64,000 nt of DNA from Escherichia coli (lineage in GTDB: Bacteria; Pseudomonadota; Gammaproteobacteria; Enterobacterales; Enterobacteriaceae), in NCBI RefSeq assembly GCF_003790525.1, contig NZ_CP033635.1. One strand, written 5' to 3'. The notes under the pieces were generated by a model. It was not told the origin of the DNA, did no database searches, and saw only the letters and a program-made list of their open reading frames with translations. Position numbers and translations under genes: made by a program. This document shows positions 4,040 through 55,908 of this stretch, piece by piece. How positions within the stretch are numbered: position 1 is the first letter of the stretch; each line of letters opens with the position of its first letter.

Positions 4040-5887
4040 ATGTTGCTTAATATGATGTGTGGTCGTCGGCTGTCGGCAATCAGTTTGTGCGTGGCCGTAA
4101 CATTCGCTCCACTGTTCAATGCGCAGGCCGATGAGCCTGAAGTAATCCCTGGCGACAGCCCGGTGGCTGTCAGTGAACAGGGCGAGGCACTGCCGCAGGC
4201 GCAAGCCACGGCAATTATGGCGGGGATCCAGCCATTGCCTGAAGGTGCGGCAGAAAAAGCCCGCACGCAAATCGAATCTCAATTACCCGCAGGTTATAAG
4301 CCGGTTTATCTTAACCAGCTTCAACTGTTGTATGCCGCACGCGATATGCAACCCATGTGGGAAAACCGTGATGCTGTTAAAGCCTTCCAGCAACAGCTGG
4401 CAGAGGTGGCGATTGCCGGTTTCCAGCCGCAGTTTAATAAATGGGTAGAGTTACTGACCGATCCTGGTGTTAACGGGATGGCACGCGACGTCGTGCTCTC
4501 TGATGCGATGATGGGCTATCTCCATTTCATTGCAAATATTCCGGTCAAAGGCACTCGCTGGCTATATAGCAGTAAACCTTATGCGCTTTCAACGCCGCCG
4601 CTTTCGGTGATTAACCAATGGCAGCTGGCGCTGGATAAAGGTCAATTGCCGACGTTTGTTGCAGGTCTGGCACCGCAGCATCCGCAATATGCAGCGATGC
4701 ATGAATCGTTACTGGCCTTACTCAGTGACACCAAACCGTGGCCCCAACTGACCGGCAAAGCAACGTTGCGCCCAGGGCAGTGGAGTAACGACGTACCGGC
4801 GTTGCGCGAAATATTGCAACGCACAGGCATGCTGGACGGGGGGCCGAAAATTACTCTACCTGGCGATGACACGCCAACTGACGCGGTAGTCAGCCCATCC
4901 GCTGTTACTGTTGAAACAGCAGAAACTAAGCCGATGGACAAGCAAACGACGTCTCGTAGTAAACCTGCGCCTGCCGTTCGTGCCGCCTACGATAATGAAC
5001 TGGTGGAAGCCGTTAAACGTTTTCAGGCATGGCAAGGATTGGGAGCAGATGGCGCTATTGGCCCGGCAACGCGTGACTGGTTAAACGTAACGCCCGCCCA
5101 GCGTGCTGGCGTGTTGGCACTCAACATCCAGCGATTGCGCTTGCTGCCAACAGAGCTTTCTACCGGGATCATGGTTAACATTCCGGCCTATTCGCTGGTC
5201 TACTATCAGAACGGCAATCAGGTGCTGGATTCGCGAGTCATTGTCGGTCGCCCCGATCGCAAAACGCCGATGATGAGCAGTGCACTTAACAACGTAGTGG
5301 TAAACCCGCCGTGGAACGTACCACCAACTCTGGCACGCAAAGATATTCTGCCGAAAGTGCGCAACGATCCGGGATATCTCGAAAGCCATGGCTATACGGT
5401 GATGCGCGGCTGGAACAGCAGAGAAGCGATTGACCCATGGCAGGTTGACTGGTCTACAATCACGGCCTCGAATTTACCGTTCCGCTTCCAGCAGGCTCCA
5501 GGCCCACGGAACTCGCTGGGGCGCTATAAATTCAATATGCCGAGTTCAGAGGCCATTTATTTGCATGACACGCCGAACCACAATCTGTTCAAACGTGATA
5601 CACGCGCATTGAGCTCAGGCTGTGTGCGAGTGAATAAAGCTTCCGATCTGGCGAATATGCTGTTGCAGGATGCAGGATGGAATGACAAACGTATTTCTGA
5701 TGCGCTGAAGCAGGGCGATACGCGTTACGTCAATATTCGGCAGTCGATTCCGGTGAATCTCTACTACCTGACGGCCTTTGTTGGTGCAGATGGTCGTACC
5801 CAGTATCGTACAGATATTTACAATTATGATCTGCCTGCGCGATCCAGCTCGCAAATCGTATCGAAAGCGGAACAATTAATCAGGTAA
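4040..5887 (+). CDS. ldtD: L,D-transpeptidase LdtD (YcbB), 615 aa
   Basis: N-terminal signal peptide; C-terminal YkuD-type L,D-transpeptidase domain with the catalytic cysteine in the SSGCVRV context; length and sequence match YcbB. Confidence 0.92.
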
Positions 5888-6067
5888 ATGAAGTAGTTCG
5901 GGGAAATCAGTTGTCGTAATAATTAGCATGATCGGGGGCGATTCTCTGCAGCCCCCGTCACTGCTGGGGTTGAGTCATCTTGACGTCAGCTTTACTGACG
6001 GTTAAGGTGCCTCTTGTGCGCCAGAAGTGCATATAAACGATAACATTGACCTGTAGACTTGATTATC

Positions 6068-6616
6068 ATGGACAAATTCGACGCTAATCGCCGCAAACTG
6101 CTGGCGCTTGGTGGCGTTGCACTCGGTGCCGCCATCCTGCCGACCCCGGCGTTTGCAACACTCTCTACCCCACGCCCGCGCATTTTGACACTCAATAATC
6201 TTCATACCGGAGAGTCAATCAAAGCGGAGTTTTTCGATGGCAGAGGCTATATTCAGGAAGAATTGGCAAAACTTAACCATTTTTTCCGCGATTACCGCGC
6301 GAACAAAATAAAGTCCATCGACCCAGGATTGTTCGATCAGTTGTATCGCCTGCAAGGGTTATTAGGTACCCGCAAACCGGTGCAACTCATTTCCGGTTAT
6401 CGTTCCATTGATACCAACAATGAACTACGCGCCCGCAGCCGTGGAGTAGCGAAGAAAAGCTATCACACGAAAGGGCAGGCGATGGATTTCCATATTGAAG
6501 GTATCGCGTTAAGCAATATTCGCAAAGCCGCGTTATCTATGCGCGCAGGTGGTGTAGGATATTACCCACGTAGTAACTTTGTGCATATTGATACCGGGCC
6601 AGCACGGCACTGGTAG
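6068..6616 (+). CDS. mepK: Peptidoglycan L,D-endopeptidase MepK (YcbK), 182 aa, Tat-type signal
   Basis: N-terminus MDKFDANRRKLLALGG...AFA carries a twin-arginine-like motif; start chosen at the second in-frame ATG to match the known 182-aa product. Confidence 0.85.
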   Translation: MDKFDANRRKLLALGGVALGAAILPTPAFATLSTPRPRILTLNNLHTGESIKAEFFDGRGYIQEELAKLNHFFRDYRANKIKSIDPGLFDQLYRLQGLLGTRKPVQLISGYRSIDTNNELRARSRGVAKKSYHTKGQAMDFHIEGIALSNIRKAALSMRAGGVGYYPRSNFVHIDTGPARHW

Positions 6617-6642
6617 TAATCGCTTAACGAAACAGGGGCAGT

Positions 6643-7290
6643 ATGAACTATCGTATTATTCCGGTCACCGCATTCTCCCAGAACTGTTCATTGATCTGGT
6701 GTGAACAAACCCGACTGGCCGCACTGGTCGATCCTGGCGGCGATGCGGAAAAAATCAAACAGGAAGTTGATGCCAGCGGCCTGACACTGATGCAGATCCT
6801 GCTGACTCATGGTCATCTGGACCACGTTGGCGCAGCGGCGGAACTGGCGCAACATTACGGCGTGCCGGTTTTTGGCCCGGAAAAAGAAGATGAGTTCTGG
6901 CTGCAAGGCTTGCCTGCGCAAAGTCGTATGTTTGGTCTGGAAGAGTGCCAGCCGCTGACGCCAGATCGTTGGCTGAACGAAGGCGATACCATCAGCATAG
7001 GGAATGTGACTTTACAGGTGTTACATTGCCCTGGGCATACGCCGGGTCATGTCGTGTTTTTTGATGAGCGGGCAAGGCTGCTGATTTCTGGCGACGTTAT
7101 TTTCAAAGGCGGAGTAGGGCGCAGTGACTTTCCGCGTGGCGATCATAATCAACTGATTTCTTCAATCAAAGATAAATTGCTGCCCCTGGGGGATGACGTG
7201 ACATTTATTCCGGGTCACGGACCATTATCAACTCTTGGTTACGAACGCCTGCATAATCCCTTCCTGCAAGACGAAATGCCCGTCTGGTAA
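6643..7290 (+). CDS. gloC: Metallo-beta-lactamase-fold hydrolase GloC (YcbL), glyoxalase II-type, 215 aa
   Basis: THGHLDHVG metal-binding motif (HxHxDH) typical of the MBL fold; length matches YcbL. Confidence 0.88.
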
Positions 7291-7295
7291 AGACG

Positions 7296-7330
7296 TATAA
7301 AAAAGCCCGCTTTCACAGCGGGCTTCGTTT
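7296..7330. terminator. Bidirectional intrinsic terminator between convergent gloC and aspC
   Basis: Stem gcccgc...gcgggc flanked by an A-run on one side and a T-run on the other. Confidence 0.65.
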
Positions 7331-7339
7331 AACTAGCCT

Positions 7340-8530
7340 TTACAGCACGGCCACAATCGCTTCGCACAGCGGAGCCATGTTATCTGGCGTCATCCCGGCC
7401 ACGTTCACACGACCAGAAGCCACTGCATACACGCCAAACTCTTCACGCAGACGCAGTACCTGTTCTTTCGTCAGGCCACTGAAGGAGAACATACCGTTCT
7501 GTTTGATGATAAAGCTGAAGTCGCGGTTTGCCCCTTTTTCCTGCAGCGTATTGACGAACAACTGACGCATACGCTGAATACGCTGGCGCATATCAGTCAG
7601 CTCTTGTTCCCAAATCGCACGTAACGCATCGTTGCTCAGGATGGTGGCAACAACAGAAGCGCCGTGTGCTGGTGGGTTAGAGTAGTTAGCGCGAATCGCC
7701 GCTTTCATTTGGCTGAATGCGCGATCAACGGTCTCACTGTCAGCAGCAACCAGAGTACAAGCGCCAACACGCTCGTTGTACAGGCCAAAGTTTTTAGAGT
7801 AGGAACTGGCAACAATCAGCTCTTTATGCATAGCAGCGAAAGCGCGCAGTCCTTCAGCATCTTCTTCCAGACCACGGGCAAAACCCTGGTAAGCGAAGTC
7901 AAACAGCGGTAACCAGCCTTTCTCAACGGAAAGTTGTGCCAGTGTCTGCCATTGTTCCAGCGTAGGGTCGATACCGGTTGGGTTATGGCAGCAGCCATGG
8001 AACAGCACTACGTCGCCAGCCTGAGCTTCGTTCAGGCTGTTAATCAGTGCATCGAAGTCAAGGGTGTGATTTTCCGCATCATAATAAGCGTATTCACGAA
8101 CTTCCAGACCTGCAGAGTTAAAGACGCTCTTATGGTTCGGCCAGCTTGGGTTGCTCACCCACACACGCTTAACGCTGGTATTTTTTGCCAGGAAATCGGC
8201 AGCCACGCGTAGTGCGCCAGTGCCACCCGGAGTCTGTGCCGTGCGAGCACGTTTGTCATTGATCAGGGCGCTACCTTTACCAAACAGCAGTTCCTGAGTG
8301 CAGCGACCAAATTCAGGGATGCCGTCAATGCCGAGGTAATTTTTGGTGGTTTCATTTTCGAGCAAATACTGTTCAGCCTTTTTCACGCTGGTCAGTACCG
8401 GGGTTTTGCCCGTCTCATCTTTATAGACACCAATCCCGAGGTTAATTTTGCCGGGACGTTCATCGGCACGAAACAGATCGGCCAGGCCCAGAATCGGGTC
8501 GGCAGGAGCGGCGGTAATGTTCTCAAACAT
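7340..8530 (-). CDS. aspC: Aspartate aminotransferase, 396 aa
   Basis: Full-length match to AspC ([23 protein letters not shown]...), PLP-dependent aminotransferase class I. Confidence 0.96.
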
Positions 8531-54404: not shown

Positions 54405-54789
54405 CCCCTAATTTGTTTGTTTGCCTGAAAAACAGCCAAAAGTGCATTGATAGCGTGAAATAACAGCAGATTGATCATTTCATCACCATGAATTCCTTCT
54501 CTTTTACTCGTTTGGCAACCGGCTAAACATCCCCACTGCCCGGCAAAAAGAAAAATAGGTCCATTTTTATCGCTAAAAGATAAATCCACACAGTTTGTAT
54601 TGTTTCGTGCAAAAGTTTCACTACGCTTTATTAACAATACTTTCTGGCGACGTGCGCCAGTGCAGAAGGATGAGCTTTCGTTTTCAGCATCTCACGTGAA
54701 GCGATGGTTTGCCTTGCTACAGGGACGTCGCTTGCCGACCATAAGCGCCCGGTGTCCTGCCGGTGTCGCAAGGAGAAGAGACGTGCGAT

Positions 54790-55908
54790 ATGAATAACGA
54801 GGAAACATTTTACCAGGCCATGCGGCGTCAGGGCGTTACCCGGCGCAGCTTTCTCAAATATTGCAGTCTGGCTGCCACGTCGCTGGGATTAGGCGCGGGA
54901 ATGGCACCAAAGATTGCCTGGGCGCTGGAGAACAAACCGCGCATTCCGGTGGTATGGATCCACGGTCTGGAATGCACCTGCTGTACCGAATCTTTTATCC
55001 GCTCCGCTCACCCGCTGGCAAAGGACGTCATCCTTTCCCTGATTTCCCTCGATTACGACGATACTTTGATGGCTGCCGCCGGAACCCAGGCGGAAGAAGT
55101 CTTTGAAGACATCATCACGCAATACAATGGCAAATATATCCTCGCAGTAGAAGGTAATCCGCCGCTGGGCGAGCAGGGGATGTTCTGTATCAGCAGCGGA
55201 CGACCGTTTATTGAGAAACTCAAACGTGCCGCTGCCGGAGCCAGTGCGATTATCGCCTGGGGAACCTGCGCGTCCTGGGGCTGCGTGCAGGCCGCGCGAC
55301 CCAATCCGACGCAGGCAACGCCTATCGACAAAGTCATCACCGACAAACCTATTATCAAAGTACCTGGCTGCCCGCCGATCCCGGATGTGATGAGCGCCAT
55401 CATTACTTACATGGTGACCTTTGATCGCTTGCCAGATGTCGACAGAATGGGCCGTCCGTTGATGTTCTATGGTCAGCGAATCCACGATAAATGCTATCGC
55501 CGCGCCCACTTCGACGCCGGAGAGTTCGTCCAGAGTTGGGACGATGACGCTGCCCGCAAAGGTTACTGCCTGTACAAAATGGGCTGCAAAGGGCCTACCA
55601 CCTATAACGCCTGTTCCTCCACACGCTGGAATGATGGCGTTTCTTTCCCAATCCAGTCTGGTCACGGCTGCCTGGGCTGTGCGGAAAATGGTTTCTGGGA
55701 TCGCGGTTCGTTCTACAGCCGCGTGGTCGATATTCCGCAAATGGGTACTCATTCCACCGCCGATACCGTCGGCTTAACCGCGCTTGGCGTGGTGGCAGCG
55801 GCTGTTGGTGTGCACGCAGTCGCCAGCGCCGTTGACCAGCGCAGACGTCATAACCAGCAACCTACAGAAACCGAACATCAGCCAGGCAATGAGGATAAAC
55901 AGGCATGA
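54790..55908 (+). CDS. hyaA: Hydrogenase-1 small subunit, 372 aa, Tat signal
   Basis: Twin-arginine motif [12 protein letters not shown]; Fe-S cluster cysteines; C-terminal membrane anchor; start placed at [15 protein letters not shown]. Confidence 0.95.

Follow-up and report, generated by a model that had tools for sequence, protein, structure and literature searches.

A probable twin-arginine signal peptide on the Escherichia coli cell-wall endopeptidase MepK

The cell-wall endopeptidase MepK of Escherichia coli carries two adjacent arginines close to its N-terminus, and its locus raises a double question: whether these residues belong to a genuine signal for export through the Tat pathway, and why a small enzyme with one mononuclear zinc site uses Tat when its long-form relatives apparently do not. 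We addressed both for a 64,000-nucleotide stretch of the E. coli chromosome (contig NZ_CP033635.1), referred to here as the window. Our main reading, to which we give a probability of roughly 0.9, is that the first 30 codons of mepK, counted from the ATG at 6068, encode a genuine twin-arginine signal, and that the product is a Tat-exported M15/LAS zinc endopeptidase that cuts 3-3 cross-links.

The mepK gene, its start codon and its neighbours

The RefSeq coding sequence of mepK matches positions 6068–6616 exactly, with ATG as its start. Its product scored 274.9 bits (cutoff 185) against the NCBIfam equivalog model NF053624 (peptidoglycan L,D-endopeptidase MepK) and 206.2 bits (cutoff 27; E = 2.8e-61) over residues 33–182 against the Pfam family PF05951, Peptidase_M15_2 (DUF882). 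The features at the 5' end of the gene are as follows.

6059..6067, + strand: upstream in-frame TTG-ATT-ATC (the 'MII' extension), rejected as start
6068..6616, + strand: mepK (ycbK) coding sequence, 182 codons plus stop, from the ORF list, its translation and RefSeq CDS WP_001295932.1

The first-pass annotation of this DNA had remarked that the open reading frame begins three codons upstream, with the residues MII. The in-frame TTG at 6059 does exist, and the mechanical ORF that begins with it spans 6059–6616 and encodes 185 amino acids, as against 182 for the RefSeq version from ATG 6068. The codon is not conserved, however: Enterobacter has CTG in its place, and neither Yersinia nor a 66%-identical homologue (L002) has a start codon at this position. 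The ATG at 6068 is invariant in the alignment with Enterobacter hormaechei, Yersinia pestis and the 66%-identical homologue. Because the TTG is not conserved and the ATG is invariant, the alignment assigns the true start of mepK to ATG 6068 and not to TTG 6059. MepK homologues are overwhelmingly 182–183 amino acids long and begin with MDKFD or MDKID.

No recognisable Shine–Dalgarno sequence was found before ATG 6068 or TTG 6059 in the interval 6040–6067. Within this interval, the sequence GACCTGTAGAC(T/C)TGATTATCATG is almost identical in Enterobacter. This near-identity, despite the absence of a Shine–Dalgarno sequence, suggests that 6040–6067 may be a conserved region for initiation or regulation of a non-canonical kind. 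The whole spacer between ldtD and mepK (5888–6067, 180 nt) has a predicted fold of −72.1 kcal/mol (z = −4.9), which none of 200 shuffled sequences equalled, with several hairpins that include a GC-rich one at about 5934–5956. The spacer matched no Rfam family and contained no T-run terminator. Its 3' half (about 5980–6067) is well conserved with Enterobacter and holds a TTGACG hexamer resembling a −35 element. The structure and conservation of the spacer could reflect the 3' end of ldtD, or a promoter and 5'-UTR of mepK.

mepK lies immediately downstream of ldtD and is flanked on its other side by gloC. The region 5700–6900, labelled ldtD, mepK and gloC in RefSeq, is present at 95% identity or more in 5,425 of 5,426 complete E. 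coli genomes. The order of an ldtD-like gene (YkuD), mepK and a gloC-like gene (Lactamase_B) is common to Enterobacter, Yersinia and the 66%-identical homologue. E. coli (window positions 4040–8530), Enterobacter and Yersinia (loci L007 and L008) share the longer order (mukB)-ldtD-mepK-gloC-aspC(-)-ompF-like porin(-). The conserved adjacency of ldtD and mepK is consistent with the reported cutting, by MepK, of the 3-3 cross-links that LdtD makes. The gap between mepK and gloC is only 26 nt (6616 to 6643), which suggests that the endopeptidase gene and the gene for a glyoxalase II-type hydrolase are co-transcribed. An Rfam scan of 5700–6800 gave no significant match, and a promoter and terminator scan returned no more sites than it did in shuffled sequence.

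Anatomy and conservation of the signal peptide

The MepK N-terminus reads MDKFDANRRKLLALGGVALGAAILPTPAFA and continues, after the predicted cleavage point, with TLSTPRPR. The RR-K-L-L motif, the hydrophobic stretch and the AFA site that the first-pass annotation had described are all present, at R8-R9, L11–L24 and A28–A30. Together they give a tripartite signal ahead of the mature domain, with an n-region (M1–K10) that is polar, of mixed charge and ends in R8-R9-K10, an h-region (L11–L24) and a c-region (P25–A30).

6068..6157, + strand: Tat-type signal peptide, residues 1–30, MDKFDANRRKLLALGGVALGAAILPTPAFA, from the sequence; the same 30 residues are TatP-listed in PMC7549933
6086..6106, + strand: twin-arginine motif N7-R8-R9-K10-L11-L12-A13, a match to the TatP regular expression; RR is CGC CGC at 6089–6094
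6098..6139, + strand: h-region L11–L24 (LLALGGVALGAAIL), rich in Gly, Ala and Leu, from the Kyte–Doolittle profile
6140..6157, + strand: c-region P25–A30 (PTPAFA), A-x-A signal peptidase I site with predicted cleavage after A30

Gly and Ala make up seven of the 14 residues of the h-region. Two prolines, P25 and P27, lie in the c-region, and its A28-F29-A30 (nucleotides 6149–6157) was assigned as the cleavage site by the −3/−1 rule for signal peptidase sites. The c-region has no basic residue, the nearest being R36 and R38 in the mature part. A run of 26 uncharged residues (K10 to R36) comes after the motif. An arginine like R38, just before the first strand, also occurs in most of the long-form relatives that lack RR, and is therefore not specific to Tat routing.

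Two arginines might stand by chance in the n-region of an ordinary Sec signal, a reading that we regard as extremely improbable. It draws on the fact that the MepK motif N-R-R-K-L-L-A departs from the full consensus S/T-R-R-x-F-L-K, with N at −1, L for F and A for K, and agrees with it exactly only at RR and at the second hydrophobic position. The generic Tat models Pfam PF10518 and NCBIfam TIGR01409 gave no match to MepK at E values up to 10. The signal, with 30 residues, also falls short of the 33.4 that the other E. coli Tat signals average. Finally, the neighbouring LdtD (N-terminus at window 4040–4129) has RR just before its hydrophobic core, fails the TatP motif (RR-L-S-A) and is absent from the Tat-substrate lists of the E. 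coli and Salmonella papers compared here, which shows that RR alone is not diagnostic.

Positive controls for TIGR01409 showed that TorA, SufI, CueO, HyaA and EfeB are matched, canonical Tat signals scoring 18.0–24.8 bits against a cutoff of 16.7, whereas AmiC and FhuD are missed; PF10518 likewise misses AmiC and FhuD. Because these two are listed Tat substrates with RRxLL signals, the miss of MepK is a limit of model sensitivity for such signals and is not evidence against Tat. The S/T-R-R-x-F-L-K consensus, too, is a tendency and not a requirement, as AmiC, FhuD and EfeB carry RRxLL. We also applied a Tat rule that combined the TatP motif RR.[FGAVML][LITMVF] within the first 35 residues with a run of at least 12 uncharged residues. 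Among the 63 ORFs of at least 150 amino acids in all six frames of the whole window, only mepK and hyaA passed, which argues that the MepK arginines are not a chance feature. HyaA, the small subunit of hydrogenase-1, is a classical textbook Tat substrate. The mechanical hyaA ORF (54763–55908, + strand), the only other window ORF of this size with a Tat-type N-terminus, begins nine codons upstream of the published HyaA start MNNEETF, which places the expected true start at about 54790.

Conservation also speaks against a chance pair of arginines. Of the 120 closest MepK homologues (76–99% identity), 119 are full-length, and every one of these keeps RR, mostly as RRKLL or RRRLL and in some as RRKWL. 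Beyond these, a library clustered at 50% identity was searched exhaustively with HMMER and yielded 3,402 representatives at E ≤ 1e-10, and we assigned architecture and signal classes by regular expression to the best 150 of them. Within this set of 150, 92 of the 93 complete single-domain representatives, and 18 of the 21 whose N-terminal region is longer, have RR or KR ahead of an uncharged stretch. A Vibrionaceae species and a Campylobacterales MAG are among these carriers of RR or KR. Across an alignment of 81 sequences with 38–66% identity to MepK, conservation of R8 and of R9 is 90% or higher and the family consensus reads RRxFL, while the remainder of the signal varies freely; the equivalog model NF053624 itself starts at R8. 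A fixed RR within a drifting signal is the pattern predicted by selection for Tat targeting.

Comparison with established Tat substrates places the MepK signal in a recognizable group. The 'S-R-R-x-L-L' signals of AmiA, AmiC, FhuD and EfeB are tripartite like that of MepK, about 30–35 residues long, with RR-x-L-L and an A-x-A site; their passengers, as in MepK, need no complex redox cofactor, and AmiA and AmiC are peptidoglycan hydrolases. AmiC and FhuD share with MepK the failure to be recognized by the generic models. What sets MepK apart from this group is an N in place of S or T ahead of RR, an h-region of greater hydrophobicity and the absence of K or Q behind LL. TorA, HyaA, SufI and CueO (S/T-R-R-x-F-L-K) resemble MepK in having RR at the n/h boundary, a Gly/Ala-rich h-region and A-x-A, but score above the TIGR01409 cutoff, where MepK has no match, and the n-regions of TorA and HyaA are longer. 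Passengers of this second type carry molybdopterin, Fe-S or copper centres, or oligomerise before export. MepK, in contrast, has a single predicted mononuclear zinc site.

The hydrophobicity of the h-region bears on a second rival reading, in which the signal is promiscuous: Tat would be used, but a substantial fraction of MepK would also leave the cytoplasm unfolded by way of Sec and take up its zinc in the periplasm, with RR helpful and not obligatory. The best 12-residue Kyte–Doolittle window of the MepK h-region, at 2.18, is the highest in a reference set that consists of 25 Tat signals from E. coli; the remaining 24 have a mean of 1.69 (sd 0.24). Together with a c-region that lacks any basic 'Sec-avoidance' residue, this makes some leakage into Sec compatible with the sequence. 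Against a substantial Sec fraction stands the near-universal RR of the single-domain members across distant taxa, which argues for selection on Tat targeting. On these and the genetic grounds given below, we consider a promiscuous signal improbable, though less so than a chance pair of arginines.

Export of MepK in published work

The Tat signal of MepK is already known, and the first-pass annotation was right in both its observation and its interpretation. MepK/YcbK appears in Tat-substrate studies from the mid-2000s. In reporter assays of 2007, Tullman-Ercek et al. are reported to have placed the YcbK signal among those that are Tat-specific and export GFP in a Tat-dependent manner, which weighs against promiscuity. 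A table of E. coli and Salmonella Tat substrates has included MepK/YcbK since at least 2011 (PMC3027627). The prediction by TatP or SignalP that the first-pass annotation had proposed as a check is available from two studies, and both tools call MepK Tat-type: YcbK with the signal MDKFDANRRKLLALGGVALGAAILPTPAFA is one of 25 Tat substrates predicted by TatP 1.0 in an ExPEC strain (PMC7549933), and a secretome study of 2026 gives its SignalP class as 'SPI-Tat' (PMC12962677). These calls are a further argument against an incidental RR.

One paper takes the opposite view of an orthologue: a 2014 study states that KPN_00953 of Klebsiella pneumoniae has neither a signal peptide nor an RR motif (PMC3927764), a claim to which we give no weight. 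In many database entries of this family the N-terminus is over-extended, so that the Tat signal lies hidden inside the protein (P0022, P0088 and other Klebsiella-like entries of 211–253 amino acids). The longer entries contain MDKFDANRR internally, and in the Klebsiella-like ones about 28 extra residues precede MDKFDANRRR. Such an over-extended start annotation may possibly lie behind the claim for KPN_00953.

Genetic evidence comes from Salmonella, in the parts of PMC8262268 that deal with the tat phenotype and with rerouted substrates. There, the ampicillin sensitivity of the tatABC mutant is traced to the loss of four substrates, mepK among them, and an amiA amiC sufI mepK quadruple mutant is described as statistically equivalent to tatABC in ampicillin. 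These results point to Tat and away from a chance RR. That loss of mepK contributes to the tat phenotype would also be unexpected if Sec delivered enough MepK. The same parts of the paper report fusions of these proteins to the OmpA (Sec) signal: those of AmiA, AmiC and SufI rescued tatABC, whereas OmpA(1-21)-MepK(31-183) did not, so that AmiA and AmiC can be functionally rerouted via Sec in Salmonella and MepK cannot. The construct MepK31-183 implies the same cleavage point as our A30/T31. The failed complementation weighs against a promiscuous signal; it is a negative result, and the passages of PMC8262268 on the construct report no control for expression or localisation. In those passages the authors explain it by the Zn2+ cofactor of MepK and a need to fold before export. 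In favour of promiscuity, a passage of PMC9995818 that cites Tullman-Ercek 2007 states that many E. coli RR signals are non-exclusive, including those of AmiC and MdoD.

On the main reading of a genuine Tat signal, MepK is made in the cytoplasm, where it probably folds and may bind zinc. The N-R-R-K-L-L at the n/h boundary would be recognised by TatBC, and the Tat translocase, driven by the proton-motive force, would carry the protein over the inner membrane, Tat dependence being its published classification. Signal peptidase I is predicted to cut after A-F-A, at residue 30, which would release a periplasmic M15/LAS zinc endopeptidase of roughly 17 kDa. According to the literature, the released enzyme would then cleave the 3-3 (mDAP-mDAP) cross-links that L,D-transpeptidases such as LdtD make; the section of PMC8262268 that introduces this 3-3 mDAP endopeptidase activity credits it to Chodisetti & Reddy 2019.

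The zinc peptidase domain and its long-form relatives

The first-pass annotation had suggested that Tat would export a folded, possibly metal-loaded peptidase, which raises the question of what the passenger itself demands. MepK is described as an M15 metalloenzyme in the literature, and the mature part contains the following features.

6158..6613, + strand: mature MepK T31–W182, with the M15/LAS zinc peptidase domain from about R38
6464..6487, + strand: H133-x6-D140 within S131-x-H-x-x-G-x-A-x-D, the first two predicted zinc ligands; H133 is CAC at 6464–6466 and D140 is GAT at 6485–6487
6584..6586, + strand: H173 (CAT), the third predicted zinc ligand, in an F-V-H-x-D motif; invariant in the alignment of 81 sequences

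H133, D140 and H173 are presumably the zinc ligands, corresponding to the H-x6-D...H triad of LAS/M15 peptidases. S131, H133, G136, A138, D140, H173 and D175 are invariant in the alignment of 81 sequences. An AlphaFold2 model of MepK built on this alignment (mean pLDDT 93, pTM 0.81) has a helix of lower confidence at residues 3–21, corresponding to the signal, an extended linker at 22–37 and a compact domain at 38–182. A Foldseek search of this model against the PDB returned the zinc D-Ala-D-Ala peptidase 1lbu, VanY/VanXY, LdcB, ChiX, phage L-Ala-D-Glu peptidases and Hedgehog-N. The model thus identifies MepK as an M15/LAS zinc peptidase of the Hedgehog/DD-peptidase fold with a predicted zinc site. 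The Streptomyces albus enzyme 1lbu, VanY/VanXY, LdcB and ChiX share with MepK the predicted fold core and the H-x6-D...H zinc triad, and the overlap is partial (TM about 0.25–0.47 over 59–186 aligned columns, 14–32% identity). The MepK substrate also differs from theirs, being 3-3 mDAP-mDAP cross-links according to the part of PMC8262268 that describes it.

A phmmer sequence search of the PDB found no relative of MepK with a solved structure. Weak PDB matches of MepK residues 72–107 (window about 6281–6388) to leucine-rich-repeat proteins (LRRTM, lamprey VLRs) were rejected as chance similarity. They arise because ANKIKSIDPGLFDQLYRLQGL resembles a leucine-rich-repeat unit; the region is a helix and a loop in the M15 model.

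Among the best 150 of the 3,402 family representatives, 28 are long forms of DUF882, in which a MepK-like N-terminal domain is followed by a C-terminal extension of 160–530 residues, for total sizes of 373–730 amino acids (P0148, P0158, P0165, P0192, P0223, P0237 and others). One named example is from the alphaproteobacterium Polycladidibacter (Pseudovibrio) stylochi. A Pfam scan of the C-terminal extensions found no domain. The Peptidase_M15_2 domain of long forms such as that of P. stylochi is about 50% identical to that of MepK, with SxHxxGxAxD intact, and this zinc motif is kept in all but one of the 28. Besides the extension, the long forms differ from MepK in the N-terminus: 18 of the 28 have hydrophobic N-termini without RR, and only three have a full Tat motif.

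These proteins bear on both the route and its rationale. RR-less hydrophobic N-termini in 18 of 28 long forms that carry SxHxxGxAxD lend some support to the promiscuous-signal reading of MepK. Because long forms with the same zinc motif mostly lack RR, zinc alone does not appear to force Tat, and the long-form domain can apparently mature after Sec-type export. Judged from these relatives, the argument 'zinc enzyme, therefore Tat' does not describe a structural necessity for the MepK domain. Of the suggestion made in the first-pass annotation, then, Tat export is borne out by the predictors, the substrate lists and the conservation of RR, whereas the rationale that the metal dictates the route is weakened by the RR-less long forms. 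The step from 'metal-loaded' to 'hence Tat' has been inferred for MepK in the literature too.

The main reading, in which MepK carries a genuine Tat signal, has practical value for annotation: the gene starts at ATG 6068, residues 1–30 are the signal and the signal is of Tat type even though generic Tat models miss it. The routing of MepK has also been invoked, in the parts of PMC8262268 that treat the tat phenotype, to account in part for why tat mutants are hypersensitive to beta-lactams. As for why MepK uses Tat, we tentatively suggest, as an idea that is rather unlikely to hold, that its Tat dependence resides in the passenger, which may fold fast in the cytoplasm or capture zinc, and not in the signal, and that Tat routing of the single-domain enzymes is a selected quality-control or regulatory choice and not a structural necessity. 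The unusual hydrophobicity of the signal, its off-consensus RRxLL class and a c-region free of any Sec-avoidance charge prompt this idea, as do the RR-less, Sec-type N-termini of long forms that have the same zinc site. If this is true, Tat routing could tie the cleavage of 3-3 cross-links to the proton-motive force or to the cytoplasmic supply of zinc.
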